NCBI GenBank assembly: GCA_963797095.1
Contig: CAWCNY010000005.1
Location: 615,425 to 679,424, forward strand
From: an uncultured Chloroflexia bacterium
Lineage (GTDB): Bacteria > Chloroflexota > Chloroflexia > QHBQ01 > JADMIH01
Length of the DNA stretch: 64,000 bases
Direction of reading: 5' to 3'
In this document: positions 4,941 through 15,564 of the stretch, in pieces
How the letters are laid out: every line of letters begins with the position of its first letter
Position numbering within the stretch: position 1 is the first letter of the stretch
Translations under genes and position numbers: made by a program
The notes under the pieces: model-generated
What the model was told of the DNA's origin: nothing
The model's database searches: none
What the model saw: only the letters and a program-made list of their open reading frames with translations

Positions 4941-6310
4941 AGATGGGGTATCGAGTACCGAGTGCCGAGTACCGAGTGGCGACACCGGTCGGGGGCGCAA
5001 CACCGAGCGTGCATAGCTCGCTGTGGATGCGGCTGCATTCGCGCGCGCCTCTGCTTGTCAGCAGCGGGACGGCCTTCCTGGGTACGACATTGACGGGGAT
5101 ACTGGGGTTTGTGTTCTGGGTGATCGCGGCTCGGCTCTATCCGGCATCGAGTGTTGGGCTCGCCAGCGCGGCAATCTCGGCCATGTTCCTGGTTGGGAAC
5201 CTGGGAAGGCTGGGGATGGATTACGCCCTGGCGCTCCACCTGCCACAGCAGGGCAATAAGGAGCGGAGGCATACGACCGCATTGGTGACGTTGGGCCTGG
5301 TGGGCATCGCAAGCGCGGCGTTTGGGCTGCTGTTCATCTTGCAGGGAGCGTTCAGCAGCGAGGTGCGCAACATGCTGGTCGAAAACGGCTGGCTGGCGGT
5401 GGGGTTTGTGCTGGCGTGCGGGGCGTGGGGGCTTGGGCTGGTGCTCGAACAGTTGCTGCTGGTCGGGAGGTATGGGGGACTGGTGCTGGGGAAGAACGCC
5501 GCCTTCTCGGTTGGACGGATCGTGGCTCTGGTGATCCTGCTGCCGCTCGCAGGCGAACGATACGGTATCGTGGCTGCTACGCTGCTGGGCGTGGGAGCGG
5601 GGGTCGCGGTGGTTTGGGCTGCGTTCAGGACCCGTATGGCCTATTCTTTCGGATCGATGCGGGAGAGCGTAGGCGAGGTGGCAAGGCTAGTTGGAAGCTC
5701 AGGCTTCGGGAACTATGTACCTGCGCTGGTGGCAGGACTGCCCGGCTGGCTCCTCCCCGTGACTGTGCTGGACCGAGCGGATAGCGCCAGCGCCGCCCAT
5801 TTCTATACAGCATGGATGATAGTGACATTGGTGAACTCGGCACCGGCTGCGCTGGCTTCTGGGATGCTGGCCGAAGGGTCGCGTGTACGCGAAAGCAGCC
5901 GAGCGCTCATATTGAAGGCCTATAAATACGCAGCAGTGGTGATGGTGCCAGCTGTGGCCGTCCTGTTTGTGGCGGCGGAGCCGATCCTCAGCATATTTGG
6001 GAGCGGCTATTCGGAGAGTGGAGCGGAACTGCTACACTGGATGGCGCTCGGCAGCATACCTTACGCGCTGGTGCAGGTCAACGCAATCAAGCTGCGTTTG
6101 GACGGCAAACTCGGCGCACTCGTTGTAGCGGCTGCTCTGCTCAGCAGCATCTGCCTGGGCGGCAGCTATTTCGCGATACCGGTATTCGGCCTGGAGTCGG
6201 TTGGAATAGCCTGGATGGCAGGCTCGGTATTGGCTGGCATTGTGAGCATTTGGCCTCTCTTGCCTACAATCTTTACACGCGGAGAAAAGACACAATGGCT
6301 GCAAGCGTAA
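4937..6310 (+). CDS. Polysaccharide biosynthesis protein / Wzx-like flippase (MOP superfamily)
   Basis: There are about 12-14 transmembrane helices with a Wzx-like N-terminus. An ATGA overlap with the upstream kinase suggests coupling. Codons 5-15 are encoded by a heptamer tandem repeat (CGAGT[AG]C), so the start could instead be the internal ATG at 5027. Confidence 0.7.
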   Translation: MKMGYRVPSAEYRVATPVGGATPSVHSSLWMRLHSRAPLLVSSGTAFLGTTLTGILGFVFWVIAARLYPASSVGLASAAISAMFLVGNLGRLGMDYALALHLPQQGNKERRHTTALVTLGLVGIASAAFGLLFILQGAFSSEVRNMLVENGWLAVGFVLACGAWGLGLVLEQLLLVGRYGGLVLGKNAAFSVGRIVALVILLPLAGERYGIVAATLLGVGAGVAVVWAAFRTRMAYSFGSMRESVGEVARLVGSSGFGNYVPALVAGLPGWLLPVTVLDRADSASAAHFYTAWMIVTLVNSAPAALASGMLAEGSRVRESSRALILKAYKYAAVVMVPAVAVLFVAAEPILSIFGSGYSESGAELLHWMALGSIPYALVQVNAIKLRLDGKLGALVVAAALLSSICLGGSYFAIPVFGLESVGIAWMAGSVLAGIVSIWPLLPTIFTRGEKTQWLQA

Positions 6311-7071
6311 AGTCTAAATCGAGATTGGCCGGTCGTAGCGACATCTACTTCTGTGCCCTGGGCGGCTTTTCGCTCGGCCTCTACGCGATACTCACCCATT
6401 TTTGGGTGATCGACAGGGGCCCACTGGGTGAAGTGCCCACAGCTATGCTCGGCGCGGGGTTGCTGGTATTTCCAGGGTATAGCCTATGCCGTGCACTGGG
6501 CCTTGACCAGCATGGGACGGCTGTGTTGGGTGGGCTTTCATTCGCGCTGAGTCTGGCATTGCTGGCCGTGGCAGGCGCGGGCGCGTGGCTCATGGTGCAA
6601 GAGCTTGACATTACAGCTATCGAGACAGCGGTGCTGGCTCTCACTATTAGCTTTTGCGCTGTCGCGGCTTTGCGCAGCACAGAGGTGGATGGTGCCCTGA
6701 AGGGCGCGCCTGAGCGATGGACCGCGTTGGGATTGGTGCTTGTTCCGCTCCTCGTTGGGGCGGTGGCATTCAGCCCCGACCTGCCGGTGACCGCCGCAGC
6801 ACGGCACACCGAGTTCTATTTGAATACGCATACCACGCCACTTACCGTGGATATCTACAATGCGGAAGGCAGGACTGTAACTTATACACTGGTAGCAGAC
6901 GACGGCCACAGGCAGGAGAGCATCGGACCTATTGACCCTGGGGTGGATGGGCGTTGGGAAGGCAAATCACCAATCGCACCACCCGTGGGAGGCACATTGC
7001 ACCTGTACCTGTACCGCTATGGAACACACCAACCCTATCGCTTGCTGGTGATAGCGGGCGACAACCCATGA
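6295..7071 (+). CDS. Membrane protein with a C-terminal extracytoplasmic domain (hypothetical)
   Basis: The N-terminal half has about 5 transmembrane helices and the C-terminal 90 aa are soluble. ATG 6295 overlaps the flippase stop codon. The ORF track starts earlier, at 6250. Confidence 0.55.
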   Translation: MAASVKSKSRLAGRSDIYFCALGGFSLGLYAILTHFWVIDRGPLGEVPTAMLGAGLLVFPGYSLCRALGLDQHGTAVLGGLSFALSLALLAVAGAGAWLMVQELDITAIETAVLALTISFCAVAALRSTEVDGALKGAPERWTALGLVLVPLLVGAVAFSPDLPVTAAARHTEFYLNTHTTPLTVDIYNAEGRTVTYTLVADDGHRQESIGPIDPGVDGRWEGKSPIAPPVGGTLHLYLYRYGTHQPYRLLVIAGDNP

Positions 7072-7108: not shown

Positions 7109-8107
7109 ATGTCTATACTACGCAACAAACCTACACTACCTTATTGGGGCTACTTGCTGGCGGCTACCGCCGGAGAGGTGGCTGCGGTGTATGTGCCACT
7201 GCTTGGGCTGGGTATCTACACGGCGCTCTTGATCGCCATGCTCACGCAAGGTGTGATGTCGCGAGATGATGACAGGTGCAACCTGGCCCTTGCCCTGGTG
7301 CCTGCGCCGTTGATCCGCCTCCTTTCGCTTACTATGCCTCTCCTTGATTTCCCGCGGGTCGCGTGGTACCCAATGGTGGCGGTTCCGCTGATAGTCGCGG
7401 TATGGCTCATAGCGAGACAAGCCGGCTTCAGTCGTGGCGACCTGGGCCTTCGGATCGGTAACCTGCCAGCACAAGTGTTGGTGGCACTTTTCGGACCGGC
7501 TCTTGGAATTATCGAGTTTGTCATCCTGAAACCCGCTCCGCTCACACGCTCGGAGGATATCTATGAGATCGGGTTTTACAGCCTGGTGCTCCTGATCTTC
7601 ACCGGGCTGAACGAGGAGTTGATCTTCCGGGGGCTGATGCAGGCTGCCGCCGGGCGGGTGCTGGGCCGCAGCGCACTTCTGTTTGTGTCAATCTTGTTCG
7701 GGGTGCTGCACATCGGTTATATGTCGGTGCCGGACCTCGTATTTGTGACGGGGGTGGGGCTTGCGTTCGCGTACCTGGTACGCTGGGGAGGCTCTATCCT
7801 GGGCGTCACCCTCGTGCACGGACTTACTAATATTACGCTGTTTATAGTAGCACCCCTTGCCCTGGCTGATATGGGATCGGATGCCGCTACCAGCCTCTTT
7901 GCGGTAGCAGGAGCCGGGGTGTTGTTCGCGAGCATCGGCACATTTTGGATATATCGTTCGGCGCGCCGAGACAACGAGGCAGCTGCGCAACAGGAAAAAC
8001 CCACCTATCTGGAGAAGCCCGGCGACCTACCAATTGCTTATGCAAGGTCGAAGTATGTAACCAAAATACTTACCGACACATTGCTGGCTTCGATTGTTCA
8101 ACAATAA
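7109..8107 (+). CDS. CPBP-family intramembrane metalloprotease (CAAX protease / Abi family)
   Basis: The conserved EELIFRG motif, the FGVLH motif and the HGLTN motif lie within transmembrane helices. Confidence 0.8.
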   Translation: MSILRNKPTLPYWGYLLAATAGEVAAVYVPLLGLGIYTALLIAMLTQGVMSRDDDRCNLALALVPAPLIRLLSLTMPLLDFPRVAWYPMVAVPLIVAVWLIARQAGFSRGDLGLRIGNLPAQVLVALFGPALGIIEFVILKPAPLTRSEDIYEIGFYSLVLLIFTGLNEELIFRGLMQAAAGRVLGRSALLFVSILFGVLHIGYMSVPDLVFVTGVGLAFAYLVRWGGSILGVTLVHGLTNITLFIVAPLALADMGSDAATSLFAVAGAGVLFASIGTFWIYRSARRDNEAAAQQEKPTYLEKPGDLPIAYARSKYVTKILTDTLLASIVQQ

Positions 8108-8128: not shown

Positions 8129-8359
8129 GTGACCACAACAGTTACGACAACTACAGTTACTACCCTGGCGCAGGCCGCTGCACTGGGCGTGGTGGCGGTG
8201 ATAATCTTGCTGGCGTTGTTAGCCAACAAGCAATTCATCGCCAACAGCTCGAATGAGCGCCTGCAACGACTGAGCAAAACGCTTAACGTGGCAATAGTGC
8301 CGTTCATGATAGTGTTCGCGGTAATTGCGACCGTCAAGTTTGTTACTGCACTAAGCTAG
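8129..8359 (+). CDS. Small two-transmembrane membrane protein with a Thr/Val repeat N-terminus (hypothetical)
   Basis: A strong RBS (GAAGGAGGTG) lies 6-8 nt upstream of the GTG start. Two hydrophobic helices are present. Confidence 0.45.
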   Translation: MTTTVTTTTVTTLAQAAALGVVAVIILLALLANKQFIANSSNERLQRLSKTLNVAIVPFMIVFAVIATVKFVTALS

Positions 8360-8682
8360 TTATGCATATGGTTCAACATAGCCTGTGATCAAAGCGGTCA
8401 AGACATGCCCTGGCCATGCGAGCGTTTTGGAACGCATGGGAATGTCGCCTGACGGCAGGATAAAATATCGTTTGCACCTTGAGTGTGGGGCGGGGAATGC
8501 CTCGCCCCGTGCAAACGCCAAACCAGCAGATCACCACAGGGGTGTGGTGTTTTGCACAGTTGCAATCTTGCATCTTCTGTGTTAGTATTGTACTGTGCTA
8601 GCTGATGAGGATGGGCTGGCGGAGACTCAGGCGTATAGCTCAAGCAATCAGGCTCGAGTAGCTCGAAAAGGCGAGCAAGAAG

Positions 8683-9318
8683 ATGATCTATGATTTTGGT
8701 CCGCGCGCTCAGTGGGTCTATACGGTACTACGTGAGCGAATAACAAGCGGGGAGTTTACGCCGGGGATGCGCCTGCCATCTCATACTGAGTTGGCGGCGG
8801 AGTTCGGCGTTGCGCCACTCACTGTGCGACAGGTGCTGTCGCGCCTCGAAGAAGAGGGAATCGTATCGCGCCAACAAGGGCGCGGTACTTTCGTTCGCGA
8901 ACAAACCATCCCGGCGGTGCTGATCGCAGAGGACGACCCTGAAATGTCGGCTTTGCTCAGCGCTCACGTCCAGAGGGCAGGATACAGACCACTCACGGCA
9001 TCTAACCCGGCGGATGCGATGCAGATACTACAGAACGATCAGAACATCGCACTTATCTTCAGCGACGTGCGAATGCCTGACCGGGATAGTGGCATCGACT
9101 TCATCCGCACGGTACGAAGGCGCTGGTCTCAACTCCCACTGGCCGCTGTAACCGGTTTTCCGGAGGATCTATCGGAGTTGCATGGCACACCCAAATCACC
9201 GGTGCTGATCCTACCTAAGCCTGTGTGGGCGCACCAGATACAGGAAGCCCTACGACTGGCCCTCCGCACAACCTACAATAACATGAATTTCGAAAGACCT
9301 CACCAGCAGAACCCCTGA
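8683..9318 (+). CDS. Transcriptional regulator with an N-terminal GntR-type winged HTH fused to a C-terminal receiver (REC) domain
   Basis: The GntR HTH is visible (TELAAEFGVAPLTVRQVLSRLEEEGIVSRQQGRGTFV). It is followed by a REC-like domain (VLIAEDDPEMSALL...LIFSDVRMPD...). Confidence 0.8.
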   Translation: MIYDFGPRAQWVYTVLRERITSGEFTPGMRLPSHTELAAEFGVAPLTVRQVLSRLEEEGIVSRQQGRGTFVREQTIPAVLIAEDDPEMSALLSAHVQRAGYRPLTASNPADAMQILQNDQNIALIFSDVRMPDRDSGIDFIRTVRRRWSQLPLAAVTGFPEDLSELHGTPKSPVLILPKPVWAHQIQEALRLALRTTYNNMNFERPHQQNP

Positions 9319-9414
9319 TACGCACACAACACATGCTTGATGAGTAGAAGATAAGCCATCGCGAAGTGTAATGGAATAGATCGTGCTAACCCACTCCTTT
9401 AGATCGGGTCAGTT

Positions 9415-11559
9415 TTGATGTTGCCATCGTCCAACAATATATATCCAGAATCGAACACCTCCCAATCGATGGATATGCTCCAGGCGTTGGTATTGGCGAT
9501 CATGGATGCGCCCGACCGACGCTCTGCTTTAGGGGGCATAGTCAAGGAGACTTGTGTTCGAGCGGGCTGGGACTATGGTGAAGCGTGGGTGGTAGAGGCC
9601 GATCAAGAGGGTAATAAAGACCATCTGCGCCTTGCCACAAGCTGGCATACAGGAACGCTTGAGCTCGAGTCGTTTGCCAGCTATAGCAGGAACCTCACAA
9701 TCGAGAGTGACGGGCCGCTGGCCGGGCGTGCCTGGGCAACCCACGCGCCGGTGTGGATCAAGTCGCTTAAGGACGAACCAAAGTTCCGTCGTGGTGCTCT
9801 GGCAAGCCGTGTAGGCCTGGTTGCGGGATTCGCAATGCCGCTCTTCACCGAACAGAGCATGATCACGGTGCTAACTTTCTTCATGACAGCCAGCGAAGAG
9901 AGAGACGAGGAATTCATCAATGCGCTTTCGCAATCGGGTCCGATGCTCGGTGCGTTGATGGAGCGTAAGCCTGATGGGATGGGGGCAGGCACAGGTCTCA
10001 CGGGGCCGGAACTGATAGATGAGAATCTCAGGTTGAGCCAGGCGCTGCTGTCGAACTTAGTCAATTCGGCTATGGACGCGATCATCTCCATAGACGAATC
10101 ACAACGCATCACCCTGTTTAATCGGGCAGCCGAACAGATGTTCAGATGCTCGGCGGAAGAGGCAATCGGCCAAAGCCTCGACCGTTTCATCCCTGCGCGG
10201 CTTCAAGAGGCGCACCGTGATCTTGTGGCAGAGTTCGGTGAAACAGAGTCGGTAGCGGGGCTACGTCCGCATAGACCTGTTGTGGGGCTGCGGGCCACCG
10301 GCGAAGAGTTCCCGCTCGAATCGTCTGTTTCGCACACTACAGTCGGGGGACGGAAAGTGTTCACTGCCATACTGCGGGACATCACGGAGCGGCAGCGCAC
10401 CGAGGAGGCAAGAAGGGCACAAGTAGCCGCCGAGCAAGCCAATCAGGCAAAGAGCGAGTTCCTATCGCGCATGAGCCATGAACTGCGCACACCTCTCAAC
10501 TCTATTATAGGATTCTCAGATCTGCTCAACATGGAAGGGCTCGCGCCACGCCAGCGCGAGAATGTGGGCTACATTCGGCAGGCCGGGCAGCATCTCCTCC
10601 AGCTTGTCAATGAGGTGCTCGATATCACGAGTATCGAATCGGGCGCGGTCAACTTTTCATTGGAGCCGGTTGAGTTGAACGATGTGATCAATGAGGCGAT
10701 TGACCTGGTGCGCCCTCTGGCTGCCACACGGTTTGTGCAGTTCAGACTTGAGCCGATGCAGCCCGATCTCTACGTGCAAGCTGATCGTCAGCGGCTGAAG
10801 CAGATTCTACTCAACCTCCTGTCAAACGCTGTTAAGTATAATGTGGAGAGCGGCCTGGTCACGCTCACGGTGGATGCAGACGATGATGGTCCAATAGGGG
10901 TCAGTGTTTCGGATACGGGCATGGGAATCGACCCTGGGAAGATGAGCAAGCTGTTCATGCCTTTCGAGCGATTGGGGGCCGAACGGCTCGGCGCGGAAGG
11001 CACAGGACTGGGGTTAGCGCTCGTCAAACACCTGGTTGAGGCCATGAACGGCACTATTGGAGTGGAGAGCACGCCCGGCAAGGGAAGCACCTTTTGGGTT
11101 GAGCTGCCGCGCACGCAGGCGCAAGTAATGCCTCTGCGGAAACTTGGTACTGCGCCTATCGACACGTCCAGTCTTCCTGGTTACACATCGACCATATTGT
11201 ATGTGGAAGATAATCTGTCGAATATCAGATTGGTAGAGCGTATTCTTGAGCACCGGCAAGGTATCAGGTTGTTGAGTTCTATGCAAGGGAGGCTTGCGCT
11301 CGACATTGCTCGCGATCACAAGCCCGATGTGATTCTGCTTGACCTGCATTTACCCGATATTACGGGCCAGGATGTACTGCAAGCTCTCAAGAGCGACGCT
11401 ACAACACATGACATCCCGGTCGTGATTATAAGCGCCGACGCCACACAGGGCACACTCGAACGCCTTATTGCAGCGGGAGCGCACAGTTATCTCACAAAAC
11501 CTCTGGAAGTCAGACGCTTCCTGCGTGTTCTTGACGAGACGCTAACCTCCACGCGATAG
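9415..11559 (+). CDS. Hybrid sensor histidine kinase (GAF-PAS-HisKA-HATPase-REC), cytoplasmic
   Basis: The H-box is SHELRTPLNSIIGF. The G-box is GTGLGLALVKHL...GKGSTFWVELPR. The C-terminal REC has DLHLPD. No transmembrane segments are evident. Confidence 0.9.
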   Translation: MMLPSSNNIYPESNTSQSMDMLQALVLAIMDAPDRRSALGGIVKETCVRAGWDYGEAWVVEADQEGNKDHLRLATSWHTGTLELESFASYSRNLTIESDGPLAGRAWATHAPVWIKSLKDEPKFRRGALASRVGLVAGFAMPLFTEQSMITVLTFFMTASEERDEEFINALSQSGPMLGALMERKPDGMGAGTGLTGPELIDENLRLSQALLSNLVNSAMDAIISIDESQRITLFNRAAEQMFRCSAEEAIGQSLDRFIPARLQEAHRDLVAEFGETESVAGLRPHRPVVGLRATGEEFPLESSVSHTTVGGRKVFTAILRDITERQRTEEARRAQVAAEQANQAKSEFLSRMSHELRTPLNSIIGFSDLLNMEGLAPRQRENVGYIRQAGQHLLQLVNEVLDITSIESGAVNFSLEPVELNDVINEAIDLVRPLAATRFVQFRLEPMQPDLYVQADRQRLKQILLNLLSNAVKYNVESGLVTLTVDADDDGPIGVSVSDTGMGIDPGKMSKLFMPFERLGAERLGAEGTGLGLALVKHLVEAMNGTIGVESTPGKGSTFWVELPRTQAQVMPLRKLGTAPIDTSSLPGYTSTILYVEDNLSNIRLVERILEHRQGIRLLSSMQGRLALDIARDHKPDVILLDLHLPDITGQDVLQALKSDATTHDIPVVIISADATQGTLERLIAAGAHSYLTKPLEVRRFLRVLDETLTSTR

Positions 11560-11716: not shown

Positions 11717-14371
11717 ATGCGCAGGTCCTTATCGCTCAACAAGCTGTTACTCATCTTCTCTCTACTTCTTGCATTTCCCATAGTGGCCGCACTCGCCTAC
11801 TCTTCCTATGTCGATTGGCAGAATAGTGAGCAAGCAGTTCGCAACGCGAACACGCAGACAGCTAAGATAATCGCCGCTCAGGTTGACGGGTATATTTCAG
11901 ATGCGCGCTTCATGTTGGAGCAGATGGCCGCGCGCCCATCAGTACGCAACCTTGACCCTGGTGAGTGCGACCCCGCGCTGGACGATTTTCTTGCTTTGCA
12001 TACTCAATTCACCACAGTCTTTACGGTTGGCCCGGATGGGCAACTGGTGTGCTCGACGACGCCGCCTGCAAACCGCCCAAGCACCGCTTTCGGGGACAGG
12101 GCATGGTTTCAGGACCTTGTGGCGAATAACGAGTTCGTAATCAGCGAACCCCAGATCGGGAAACTCAGCGGTAAGTGGGTGGCGGTACTGGCAGTGCCCG
12201 TGCATGGGGCAGATAATCGGACGGCAGGCGTAATAGCTTTCTCATTGGATCTTATCCGCTTCCAGGAGCCTTTCGCTACGTCTGTGAGCCTGGAGGACAC
12301 AGTAGTCCGAATCATCAACAACGACGGGACGATTGTTGCATCGAGCGACGCCCCCGAACAATGGGTGGGCAGGAACTTCGCGGATAACACCACGGTGCAA
12401 AGTGTCCTTTCCAGTTTTTCGGGCCAGGATCAGAGCACCGGACTGGACGGTATCGAGCGACTCCAGTCTTACACAACCATAGGGTCGGCAAACTGGCATG
12501 TGTGGGTAGGTGAGCCGGTTGAGACGGCATTTGTGGCAGCGCGAGACAACTCCATCCGAAATGGGGTTATCGCCTTGCTGCTATTGGTGGCGGCGGGGGC
12601 TTTCGCATTTATGGCTGGGCAGGGGATCGTTGGGCCCGTAAACAGGCTGGCGCAGGCAGCGCGTGCTGTTGGGCAAGGCAATCGCGATGTCAGAGCACCG
12701 GTGGAAGGCCCGGCGGAGATAGCGGATATGGCCTTGGCGTTCAATGCAATGCTGGCGGCGCGCAACAGGGTTGAGGAAGACCTGCAGCAGTCTGAAGAGG
12801 TATTCAAGAAGGCATTCCAGGCCAGCCCTGAAGCGCTATTGATCAGGCGGCTCAGCGACAATGCTGTGCTTGATGTGAACCCGGCCTTCGAGGAGGTAAC
12901 AGGCTTTAGCCGAAAGGAAGTGTACGACGAACCCAACGTCTTCTTCGAATTGCTGGCCGGCCCTGACTACCTGGGTGTAGTTCCCAATATGCTGGCATCG
13001 GGCCAGCCTGTTGTGAACTACGAAGTGCAGTTTCGGCATAAATCGGGTGAGATGCGGGATGCCCTGATCACAGCCGAGAATGTGGAGATCAGGGGCGAGC
13101 GCTGCCTGTTGGTGATAGGGCGCGACATCACGGAAATCCGCCAGGCCGAGCGCGCCCGGTTGGCAGTGGAAGCTGCCGAGAGCGCCAACAAAGCCAAGAG
13201 CGAGTTTCTATCGAGTATGAGCCATGAACTGCGCACTCCGCTCAACGCTGTGCTGGGCTTCACCGAGCTTTTGGAGATGGAGAACCCTACGCAAAGGCAG
13301 TACGAGAATCTAGAGCATATACGCAATGCGGGGCAGCACCTTCTAAAGCTGGTTAACGAAGTGCTCGATATGGCACGTATCGAAGCGCAGCAGATCAACC
13401 TCGCTCCCGAACCTGTGCCGGTTAGCGACATTCTCAAGGAATGCGTTGACCTGATCGCCCCAAGCGCCCAAAGAGACAACATAGAGATCAGGGTAGCGTC
13501 GAACGGGCCAGCGAACGACGGAAGTTGGAATGAAGCGGCAGGCAAAGGTAAGGGCCAATCAGCCGAGCAGTGGGTGCTCGCCGACAGGCAGAAGTTGCGG
13601 CAAACGCTACTCAATCTGCTCTCCAACGCGATCAAGTACAACCACGAAGGAGGCTCGGTAACGGTGGGGTCCTCACACGACGGCAACGGATACATCCGCA
13701 TCAGTGTAGCGGACACGGGTGAGGGCATATCGCCGGAGCAGATGAAGAGGTTGTTTGTGCCTTTCGAGCGACTTGAGGCAGGCAGGCGCAACATAGAGGG
13801 TACGGGCCTGGGCCTGGCGCTGTCCAAGCTGTTAGTGGAGGCGATGGCAGGACGTATCGGGGTGGAAAGCGAGCAGGGGAGTGGCTCTACCTTCTGGGTT
13901 GAGCTTCCCAGGGTGGTCCTGCGTGCTCATGATCAGGACAGACCGAGGGATGAAATAGAAGGAAGCAGCATGGACGAGGTAACCCATGAAACTACGACAG
14001 GGAATGTGCTCTATATTGAGGACAATCTATCCAACCTCAAGCTCGTGGAGGGGATATTGCGGCACCGGCCGGGGGTGAAGCTGGCGGCTGCTGTCACAGG
14101 GGGTGAGGGGCTGGAAGCGGCCCGGCAAAGCAAGCCTGACGTGATCCTGCTCGATCTCAATTTGCCGGATATGCATGGTGAAGAGGTATTCAGGCAGTTG
14201 CGGGATGGGGAGACGACAGCGCAGATCCCTGTAGTGATAGTGAGTGCGGATGCCAGCCCTGACCAGATCCGGCACTTAGAATCGCTTGGCGCTTATTCGT
14301 ATGTCACTAAGCCCGTGGATATCCATCGCCTGCTTGGACTGATCGATGATTTGTTGGGAAAGCAATCTTAA
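11717..14371 (+). CDS. Hybrid sensor histidine kinase with a periplasmic Cache-like sensor (TM-Cache-TM-HAMP-PAS-HisKA-HATPase-REC)
   Basis: A signal/transmembrane segment precedes an extracytoplasmic domain of about 250 aa. This is followed by a second transmembrane segment, a HAMP domain, a PAS domain, the H-box SHELRTPLNAVLGF, the ATPase G-boxes, and a C-terminal REC (DLNLPD). The kinase core is paralogous to the upstream kinase. Confidence 0.9.
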   Translation: MRRSLSLNKLLLIFSLLLAFPIVAALAYSSYVDWQNSEQAVRNANTQTAKIIAAQVDGYISDARFMLEQMAARPSVRNLDPGECDPALDDFLALHTQFTTVFTVGPDGQLVCSTTPPANRPSTAFGDRAWFQDLVANNEFVISEPQIGKLSGKWVAVLAVPVHGADNRTAGVIAFSLDLIRFQEPFATSVSLEDTVVRIINNDGTIVASSDAPEQWVGRNFADNTTVQSVLSSFSGQDQSTGLDGIERLQSYTTIGSANWHVWVGEPVETAFVAARDNSIRNGVIALLLLVAAGAFAFMAGQGIVGPVNRLAQAARAVGQGNRDVRAPVEGPAEIADMALAFNAMLAARNRVEEDLQQSEEVFKKAFQASPEALLIRRLSDNAVLDVNPAFEEVTGFSRKEVYDEPNVFFELLAGPDYLGVVPNMLASGQPVVNYEVQFRHKSGEMRDALITAENVEIRGERCLLVIGRDITEIRQAERARLAVEAAESANKAKSEFLSSMSHELRTPLNAVLGFTELLEMENPTQRQYENLEHIRNAGQHLLKLVNEVLDMARIEAQQINLAPEPVPVSDILKECVDLIAPSAQRDNIEIRVASNGPANDGSWNEAAGKGKGQSAEQWVLADRQKLRQTLLNLLSNAIKYNHEGGSVTVGSSHDGNGYIRISVADTGEGISPEQMKRLFVPFERLEAGRRNIEGTGLGLALSKLLVEAMAGRIGVESEQGSGSTFWVELPRVVLRAHDQDRPRDEIEGSSMDEVTHETTTGNVLYIEDNLSNLKLVEGILRHRPGVKLAAAVTGGEGLEAARQSKPDVILLDLNLPDMHGEEVFRQLRDGETTAQIPVVIVSADASPDQIRHLESLGAYSYVTKPVDIHRLLGLIDDLLGKQS

Positions 14372-14514: not shown

Positions 14515-15564
14515 ATGACAACAGCTACCCTCACGACGACGTGGCCGAATGCGCGTATCCTGGTGGTTGATGACCAGCCGGTGAACACTCTCCTCCTTGA
14601 GAATATCTTGAACAGGTATGGGTTCAGGAATGTGCATTCGATCACGGATGCGCGGGACGTGGTGCCTTTGGTGCGTGATCTGAAGCCTGACCTGATATTG
14701 CTCGATCTGTGGATGCCGTACCTGGATGGGTTTGAGGTGCTGGAGAATCTGAGCGATGTGATCGACGGGAGCGAGTTCTTGCCTGTGCTGGTGCTGACGG
14801 CGGATGTGAACCCGGATAGTAAGAGGCGCGCCCTATCGAGCGGTGCGAAGGACTTTTTGAACAAGCCGTTCGACAGCCAGGAAGTGATCCTGCGGGTTAC
14901 GAATTTGCTTGAGACGAGGTGGTTGTATTTGCAGTTGCAGGACCGGAACCGCAATCTGGACGAGCAGGTGCGGAAGCGCACTTATGAGCTGGAAGCGGCG
15001 CAGGTTGAGATGCTGGAGAGGCTGGCGTGGGCGGCTGAGTACCGGGACGACGATACGGGCCGCCATATCCAGCGGGTGGGGAATAATGCGACGATTGTGG
15101 CGGAGGCGCTTGGGCTGGGGGAGCAGTTGACCACGCTTATACAACGGGCTGCGCCTCTGCATGATGTGGGGAAGATCGGGGTGCCGGACAGTATTCTTCT
15201 TAAGCCGGGCAGGCTGACGGCTGAGGAGTTTGATGTGATCAAGAGGCATACGAATATCGGTGCTCGGATCCTGGCGGAGGGGCATTCGGCCCTGGTACGG
15301 ACGGCTGCGAGTATTGCTTTTTCGCACCACGAGCGATGGGACGGGTCGGGGTATCCGGCGCGCGTGACGGCGGAGAGGATTCCGATTGAGGGGCGTATTG
15401 TGGCGGTGGTGGATGCTTTTGATGCTCTTACTCATAAACGTCCTTATAAGGAGCCGTGGCCTATTGAGGATGCCCTTGCGGAGATACGCAGGAATACGGG
15501 GACGCAATTCGATCCTATGATTGCTGAGGCGTTTTTGGATTGTCAGAGGTGTCTTGAGTTGTGA
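14515..15564 (+). CDS. Response regulator with REC plus an HD-GYP phosphodiesterase domain (RpfG-like; c-di-GMP hydrolysis)
   Basis: The REC domain is present (ILVVDDQ...LLDLWMP). The HD domain is present ([11 protein letters not shown]). The [11 protein letters not shown] motif is the HD-GYP signature. Confidence 0.9.

Follow-up and report, generated by a model that had tools for sequence, protein, structure and literature searches.

The window encodes a GntR-REC response regulator in reverse domain order

We analyzed a 64,000-nucleotide stretch of contig CAWCNY010000005.1 (assembly GCA_963797095.1, positions 615,425 to 679,424 of the forward strand) from an uncultured Chloroflexia bacterium. 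We refer to the whole stretch as the window. The gene of interest lies at 8683 to 9318 on the plus strand, starts with ATG, and encodes a 211-residue response regulator. An earlier note on this DNA had proposed that the protein joins an N-terminal GntR-family winged helix-turn-helix (wHTH) to a C-terminal CheY-like receiver (REC). Pfam scans bore this out, with both domains above the curated cut-offs. GntR (PF00392) matched residues 10 to 71 (8710 to 8895, plus strand) with an E value of 8.3e-22 and 77.1 bits against a cut-off of 27. Response_reg (PF00072) matched residues 79 to 190 (8917 to 9252, plus strand) with an E value of 6.1e-14 and 52.6 bits against a cut-off of 30.2, covering profile positions 1 to 110 of 111. 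The linker between the two domains is about six residues long. HTH_DeoR reached 21.8 bits on the same protein, compared with 77.1 for GntR, and neither Sigma70_r2 nor Sigma70_r4 of Pfam matched it.

The NCBIfam models divide the protein in the same way. The HutC, PhnF, and MocR-type models cover only the first 80 or so residues, and the PhyR, NtrC, CpdR, and hybrid-kinase receiver models cover only residues 70 to 200. The winged helix, with its recognition helix at residues 45 to 57 and its wing at residues 58 to 72, is nearest to HutC-type relatives (HutC, NagR/YvoA, and DasR) in both NCBIfam and the PDB. Pfam and NCBIfam found no C-terminal domain of a recognized GntR subfamily in residues 79 to 190, only the receiver. 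No PDB entry covering both domains was found, by fold or by sequence. An AlphaFold2 model built from a 39-sequence alignment had a mean predicted local distance difference test score (pLDDT) of 82.8 and a predicted template modeling score (pTM) of 0.64. It consists of three helices and a β wing, a linker of about six residues, and a canonical (βα)5 receiver with a short α4. In Foldseek searches, the receiver superposed on many solved receivers at a root mean square deviation (rmsd) of about 2 Å.

The protein is therefore a genuine reverse-order response regulator, with a HutC-like GntR wHTH at the N terminus and an apparently phospho-competent receiver at the C terminus. The wHTH precedes the receiver, and the C-terminal Trans_reg_C, GerE, Fis, or LytTR domain of the classical classes is absent. 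Functionally, it should behave as a DNA-binding response regulator. It nevertheless lies outside every classical class of these, since it matches none of them in domain order or in output domain.

The receiver active site

Alignment with Escherichia coli CheY by BLASTP paired E83/D84 with D12/D13, D128 with D57, T157 with T87, and K179 with K109. By this alignment, the receiver active site is complete. The earlier note had placed the phospho-acceptor in the motif LIFSDVRMPD; it is the first Asp of that motif, D128 (codon at 9064 to 9066), which aligns with CheY D57. The note had also named a missing receiver call, or the loss of the conserved Asp, Lys, and Thr, as what would speak against its claim. 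The receiver is called, and D128, T157, and K179 are all present. In the alignment of the window protein with 38 two-domain relatives, no sequence departs from D128, T157, or P180. K179 is kept in 38 of the 39 sequences, D84 in 37, and an acidic residue (E or D) at position 83 in 38.

A rare family, found mostly in Chloroflexota

GntR and Response_reg occur together in all 120 best relatives of the window protein (52 to 92% identity) from a search of 5.8 billion proteins, a collection that held no identical copy. Where the source of these relatives is named, it is Chloroflexia, Herpetosiphonaceae, Herpetosiphon, or a Chloroflexota metagenome-assembled genome (MAG). When HMMER was run exhaustively against 1.84 billion representatives (50% identity), only 60 proteins reached an E value of 1e-30 or better, and so the GntR-REC architecture is rare yet well established. 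Hundreds of relatives, most of them from Chloroflexia/Herpetosiphonaceae MAGs, have it. The gene is thus one member of a conserved family and not a one-off, which goes beyond the earlier note. The note's statement that the inverted order is rare agrees with these roughly 60 clusters and with the literature, in which bacterial response regulators nearly always carry a C-terminal HTH and HTH-first proteins are exceptional (PMC4823666, PMC5847659).

Further loci were collected by exact-protein look-ups, by a genome scan, and with a family-specific degenerate DNA pattern; we cite loci by L numbers and proteins by P numbers. The genome scan, made with the family alignment, keyed on the generic GntR wing motif, and 4 true family members were among the 80 matches listed. 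The DNA pattern, which lies within the REC-coding region (codons 137 to 173), matched 31 metagenome contigs, and all 31 loci carry the same contiguous GntR-REC architecture. If the two-domain reading frame came from a frameshift, a mis-assembly, or read-through of two genes, it should not recur in this way. The same gapless, short-linker architecture appears in the 120 best relatives, which stem from independent assemblies and sources, and we therefore rule out a fusion artefact, to which we give next to no weight. Two divergent members (L008 and L009, 48 to 49% identity) come from MAGs labeled Deinococcales; this label reflects either spread beyond Chloroflexota or a binning error.

Conservation across the 39 sequences was scored as the mean frequency of the commonest residue in each structural element. 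It is highest in the wing (0.89), β1 (0.85), the recognition helix (0.81), α4 with its loop (0.81), and β5 (0.79), and lower in α1 (0.61), α2 (0.60), and the linker (0.45). The linker nevertheless keeps its short length, with zero gaps between the wHTH and the receiver. D162, L166, and G168 are among the conserved residues of α4-β5. The α1 helix is the usual kinase-specificity surface of receivers. The pattern fits what would be a conserved DNA target, a conserved output or dimerization face, and a variable kinase-docking face.

Searches of the full-text literature turned up no description of a bacterial GntR-REC protein. The family appears to be small, mostly from Chloroflexota, and uncharacterized, and a prior listing of the architecture in older response-regulator censuses or InterPro architecture tables is possible.

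Kinase genes are linked to the regulator gene

Three signaling genes follow the regulator gene on the plus strand. The first encodes hybrid histidine kinase 1 (9415 to 11559; GAF-PAS-HisKA-HATPase-REC), the likely cognate kinase. The second encodes hybrid histidine kinase 2 (11717 to 14371; dCache-HAMP-PAS-HisKA-HATPase-REC). The third, by domain scan, encodes a REC-HD-GYP response regulator (14515 to 15564) that is a putative cyclic di-GMP (c-di-GMP) phosphodiesterase and a possible second output of the same kinases. The domain scans agree with the two hybrid kinases and the HD-GYP regulator described in the earlier note.

Linkage to a kinase recurs across the family. Among the 17 related loci with enough flanking DNA to be informative, 13 have a kinase core within 3 kb of the family gene. 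The commonest partner is a PAS-containing hybrid kinase encoded 17 to 170 nucleotides downstream on the same strand (L001, L004, L005, L086, and L121), with distances of 17 to 80 nucleotides being frequent; the one in L086 is of the CHASE3 type. A non-hybrid kinase, upstream or divergent, is found at L005, L006, L008, L120, and L122. The other two neighbors are less constant. Hybrid kinase 2 recurs only in L001, the close orthologous locus, whose regulator is 90% identical. The REC-HD-GYP gene is absent from L001; it recurs in L121, which keeps the window order of regulator, kinase, and REC-HD-GYP, and more distantly in L008. Kinase linkage is thus conserved, but neither kinase 2 nor the HD-GYP gene is a constant member.

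The earlier note had also taken the regulator to be the transcriptional output of a phosphorelay. In such a relay, phosphate would pass from the His of a hybrid kinase to the REC of the same kinase, on to an Hpt protein, and finally to D128, making the regulator the output of both hybrid kinases. Both neighboring kinases are indeed hybrid, with C-terminal RECs, hybrid kinases are the commonest neighbors in related loci, and L004, L086, L120, and L121 have extra stand-alone REC genes. However, Hpt (PF01627) was found neither in the four cluster proteins (E value of 1e-3 or better), nor in ten other open reading frames (ORFs) of the window, nor in the gene tables of the related loci. In addition, some family members are paired with non-hybrid kinases, and the C-terminal receivers of hybrid kinases are not always relay steps, since they can inhibit or act as phosphate sinks (PMC4574943, PMC3868531). 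It is at least equally likely that the kinase core transfers phosphate directly and that the kinase REC serves as a sink or inhibitor. The note's reading of the regulator as a phosphorelay output is thus only partly supported, and the multistep relay itself is rather unlikely.

Genes for c-di-GMP enzymes also adjoin family genes. They encode REC-HD-GYP proteins in the window and in L121 (9175 to 10287), a PAS-GGDEF protein in L008 (8630 to 9748, minus strand), and a REC-GGDEF and a dCache-GGDEF protein in L120 (70 to 4000, minus strand). GGDEF genes thus lie next to the regulator gene in both L008 and L120. One relative, P0128, is itself a GntR-REC-GGDEF fusion. These observations may reflect a functional tie to c-di-GMP signaling or the mere commonness of such genes.

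A candidate operator at the promoters of family genes

A palindromic motif lies upstream of the regulator gene. We first noticed it by eye in the upstream regions of the family and then tested it statistically. In the window, the candidate operator is ACTGTGCTAGCTGATG (8592 to 8607, either strand), and the family consensus is aGTGTGCTAGCACACt, a palindrome with GT-N6-AC spacing. Its CTAG center presumably recalls the dre site of DasR/NagR. Of 30 non-redundant upstream regions, 10 contain the core GCTAGC, with 11 copies against 1.2 expected from its density elsewhere in the same loci (Poisson P of 6e-8). An unbiased k-mer count gave the same answer. The top word at k of 6, 7, and 8 was in each case a sub-word of GTGCTAGCAC, and GCTAGCA was present in 9 sequences against 0.83 expected (P of 7e-8 over 3534 words).

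The motif is also concentrated upstream of family genes. GTGCTAGC or its complement occurs at 1.22 per kb in the 300 nucleotides before family genes and at 0.017 per kb beyond 3 kb, so that the upstream density is about 70 times that of the distal flanks. GTGCTAGCAC has seven copies in 318 kb of family loci and none in 1.08 Mb of unrelated GntR control loci. Perfect 16-bp palindromes are found in L109 (AGTGTGCTAGCACACT) and L120 (ATTGTGCTAGCACAAT). Two of the three loci that were fetched after the motif had been defined (L120 and L121) carry it, 26 nucleotides before the start codon. GntR-family operators follow the rule NyGTNxACNy (PMC4494728). The candidate motif GTGCTAGCAC, enriched upstream of family genes, fits this rule with x equal to 6, and the family proteins are predicted to bind it. 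A conserved candidate operator is thus a second point on which the analysis goes further than the earlier note.

The position of the motif points to a role at the promoter. When the intergenic regions of the window and L001 were aligned, three islands were conserved and the remainder had diverged. The first island contains a putative -35 hexamer, TTGCAA (8560 to 8565, plus strand). The second, 17 nucleotides on, is a putative -10 hexamer, TAGTAT (8583 to 8588, plus strand), which is TAACAT in L001. The third is TTGTGCTAGCTGAT, which is 100% conserved between the two loci. The same layout of -35, 17-nucleotide spacer, -10, and 7 to 8 nucleotides to the GCTAGC core can be read in L097, L109, and L121. 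The candidate operator would therefore lie across the expected transcription start, about 4 to 19 nucleotides downstream of the putative -10. In L117 and L098, TTGGCACAATT..(C/T)GC stands directly before the operator-like motif, about 40 to 20 nucleotides 5' of the regulator start. It resembles a sigma-54 -24/-12 promoter (TGGCAC-N5-TTGC).

Further copies of the motif precede other genes, namely a stand-alone REC gene in L004, a PAS-GGDEF gene in L008, a PAS/kinase/REC-GGDEF operon in L120, and a glycosyltransferase gene in L121. In L121, two good palindromic sites, AAGTGCTAGCACAAT and AGTCTGCTAGCAGCA, lie within 10570 to 10660, just 5' of the gene, whose product is a family-2 glycosyltransferase. 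In L106 (oriented 46 to 615 and 893 to 1474) and L114, two GntR-REC paralogs stand in tandem on one contig, with a GTGCTAGCAC palindrome 3' of the pair. In the window, a weak second operator-like site, ATCGTGCTAACCCACT (9380 to 9395, either strand), lies in the intergenic region between the regulator and kinase genes. Scored with the motif matrix, it ranks second in the 64 kb under the window base composition and third under a different background, and it is only partly and weakly conserved in L001. Its assignment as a kinase-promoter operator is tentative. The palindrome is not enriched across the 64-kb window as a whole, which therefore reveals no regulon.

The GCTAGC palindrome could instead act as part of a promoter or leader, or be bound by some other factor, with the real targets of the regulator elsewhere. 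Four observations are consistent with this. Many copies have asymmetric flanks (TGTGCTAGCWGAT), the site coincides with the expected transcription start, the motif is missing from about half of the loci, and in L117 and L098 the motif follows TGGCAC-N5-xxGC, which resembles a sigma-54 promoter. However, L109 and L120 have perfect 16-bp palindromes, extra copies lie 5' of neighboring signaling genes, and the distance to the start codon is not fixed. Moreover, the motif obeys the GntR GT-Nx-AC rule (PMC4494728) and goes with a family in which the recognition helix and the wing hardly vary. We consider this alternative unlikely and favor the motif as the predicted operator of the GntR-REC proteins.

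Relatives with added modules

In some relatives, the wHTH-REC core is extended at its C terminus. The added module is a second REC (P0121, P0122, and P0125), GGDEF (P0128), PAS (P0156, P0158, and P0141), or a B12-binding domain (P0157). P0135 is also listed among the relatives with one of these extensions. Three of the four PAS or B12-binding forms have lost the phospho-Asp, which is E in P0156, N in P0157, and A in P0158; P0141 retains it. All four lack the Lys, with T, Q, or N at the position of K179, and lack the acidic pocket. The receiver fold and the wHTH are kept in all four. Because these relatives lost the catalytic residues and kept the receiver scaffold, they suggest that the scaffold itself may couple input to the winged helix. 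They look like response regulators that are becoming one-component sensors.

Such forms raise the possibility that the receiver of the window protein is also atypical, that is, a phosphorylation-independent module that dimerizes constitutively or binds a ligand on behalf of a GntR repressor. The degenerate receivers of the PAS and B12-binding relatives indicate that the scaffold can work without phosphorylation, and the residue equivalent to CheY Y106 is aliphatic. However, the near-complete conservation of D128, T157, P180, K179, D84, and the acidic residue 83 in the two-domain alignment argues against a pseudo-receiver, and so does the tight linkage of kinase genes. We therefore regard this explanation as improbable for the window protein and retain a phospho-competent receiver.

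Several more distant architectures also turned up. P0163 (1482 amino acids) has the family GntR wHTH at the N terminus of a PAS x5-HisKA-HATPase-REC protein; either this histidine kinase carries a DNA-binding domain of its own, or the gene call is a fusion. In P0245 and P0270, which are also long, the match is confined to an N-terminal wHTH stretch. P0150 has five GntR winged helices in tandem (PF00392 matched five stretches of its 406 amino acids), and P0177, P0180, P0182, and others have five or six stretches that match the query. The multi-HTH architecture of the P0150 type is unusual and is related to the DNA-binding domain of the family.

Other features near the regulator gene

Upstream of the regulator gene, at 6250 to 7071 on the plus strand, is a gene for a DUF1616-like membrane protein, which is shared with L001 (9305 to 9796, 58% identity). 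Between this gene and the regulator gene lies a CAAX protease gene (7109 to 8107), which, unlike the DUF1616-like gene, is not shared with L001. Conserved synteny with the protease gene had been suspected from similar C-terminal tails in L093 and L115, but tblastn gave no support for it, and we rejected it. A small ORF (8129 to 8359, plus strand) lies between the protease gene and the long leader region of the regulator gene. It encodes 76 amino acids, with a Thr/Val-rich N terminus (MTTTVTTTTVTT) and then two hydrophobic stretches, and Pfam gave no match to it. The window genes 5' of the regulator gene also include a glycosyltransferase and a nucleotidyltransferase gene.

No Rfam family was found in the window, and the long 5' intergenic region is therefore no known riboswitch or small RNA. 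A terminator-like, GC-rich hairpin with a T-rich tail (8863 to 8888, plus strand) lies within the wing-encoding part of the regulator gene. It is probably due to chance, because the count of such sites is near that expected from shuffled sequence.

Comparison with known systems

The closest characterized analogs are archaeal, namely LtrR and FilR1. In LtrR of Methanococcoides burtonii, a receiver follows a GlpR-type HTH, and the kinase LtrK phosphorylates the receiver Asp D98 in vitro (PMC4823666, PMC5847659). FilR1, going by its citation in PMC5847659, has the order wHTH-DUF1724-REC. LtrR resembles the window protein in its N-terminal HTH, its C-terminal receiver, its size of about 20 kDa, and the position of its gene beside that of its kinase. 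However, LtrR is archaeal and has a GlpR/DeoR-type HTH, whereas the window protein has a GntR HTH and comes from Chloroflexota; we compared the two by description only. An operator is predicted here, and none is given for LtrR in the same two papers.

Within the GntR family, the recognized subfamilies are FadR (FCD), HutC (UTRA), MocR (aminotransferase-like), YtrA (two-helix), AraR, and PlmA, none of which has a receiver (PMC4494728). The HutC subfamily (NagR/YvoA, DasR, and HutC) has the most similar winged helix, and the candidate operator palindrome fits the same NyGTNxACNy rule. The differences lie in the effector domain, which is a receiver here in place of the UTRA effector-binding domain, and in the GT-AC spacing, which is 6 nucleotides here and 4 there. 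The predicted input also differs, being phosphorylation here and a small ligand there.

Among response regulators, the protein shares a complete receiver active site, linkage to a kinase gene, and probable autoregulation with the OmpR/PhoB and NarL/FixJ classes. It departs from both in its inverted order, its very short linker, and an output domain drawn from a one-component family. OmpR/PhoB regulators typically bind direct repeats, whereas the candidate operator here is two-fold symmetric. PhyR, the alphaproteobacterial anti-anti-sigma factor, also has a C-terminal receiver after a helical N-terminal output domain, and PhyR receivers are among the best matches by both sequence and fold. However, the N-terminal part of PhyR is sigma-like and binds NepR instead of DNA, and the whole-chain rmsd is 11 to 13 Å.

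A proposed mechanism and its significance

The locus has four observed properties that bear on function: the domain composition of the regulator, its intact receiver active site, its linkage to kinase genes, and a conserved palindrome at family promoters. With moderate confidence, we predict that the protein is a GntR-type regulator under phosphorylation control that regulates its own gene and works with the adjacent kinase or kinases. D128 would receive phosphate from an adjacent histidine kinase, probably the hybrid one encoded directly downstream; the linkage is observed, and the transfer we infer. Phosphorylation would then alter the α4-β5-α5 face of the receiver and thereby its dimer state, as general receiver biology and the strong conservation of this face suggest. 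A two-fold receiver dimer would set two winged helices on the two-fold operator tGTGCTAGCACa, itself predicted by comparative genomics. Because the linker is short, a symmetric receiver dimer could position both winged helices on the operator. Binding across the start site would repress the regulator's own promoter and, likely, the regulator-kinase operon. Repression of the regulator's own promoter would be expected, because the site spans the expected transcription start, downstream of the putative -10.

Several points weigh against this prediction. The inter-domain geometry of the AlphaFold2 model is only moderately confident (pTM of 0.64). The aromatic switch position of CheY, Y106, corresponds to I176 and is Ile or Val in the relatives, and so the canonical Y-T coupling may not apply. 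A sigma-70 scan called no promoter upstream of the gene. The two hexamers are weak consensus matches, with 8 of 12 positions by our own count, one below the scan threshold of 9, and the putative promoter is drawn solely from the orthologue footprint. About half of the family upstream regions have no clear site, the half-sites are often asymmetric, and another factor could bind the motif.

A wider reading would join these elements, and we offer it as a tentative proposal that may well not hold in full. GntR-REC proteins would make up a subfamily, as yet undescribed, that belongs to the GntR family and to the response regulators alike. Its members would use a C-terminal receiver dimer, held on a rigid tether, to set two N-terminal winged helices on a GT-N6-AC palindrome. 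Evolution would also have repeatedly turned the receiver scaffold into a degenerate pseudo-receiver that couples PAS, B12-binding, GGDEF, or second-receiver modules to this DNA-binding head. The subfamily may tie kinase input to c-di-GMP turnover and to envelope or exopolysaccharide genes in filamentous Chloroflexia.

Rare response-regulator architectures are to be expected, and the family overturns no principle; its appeal is structural and evolutionary and holds no conceptual surprise. With an operator and a kinase partner predicted, the system can be tested directly, and it contributes a regulatory part from the phylum Chloroflexota, in which signaling is little characterized. The GntR-REC family joins two of the best-studied bacterial regulator classes, each with a textbook domain order, in reverse and with hardly any linker, and so poses the question of how a receiver controls a DNA-binding domain that lies N-terminal to it. 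It also offers a natural series, from phospho-competent forms through second-receiver forms to pseudo-receivers with PAS or B12-binding domains, which could show how two-component and one-component regulators interconvert.

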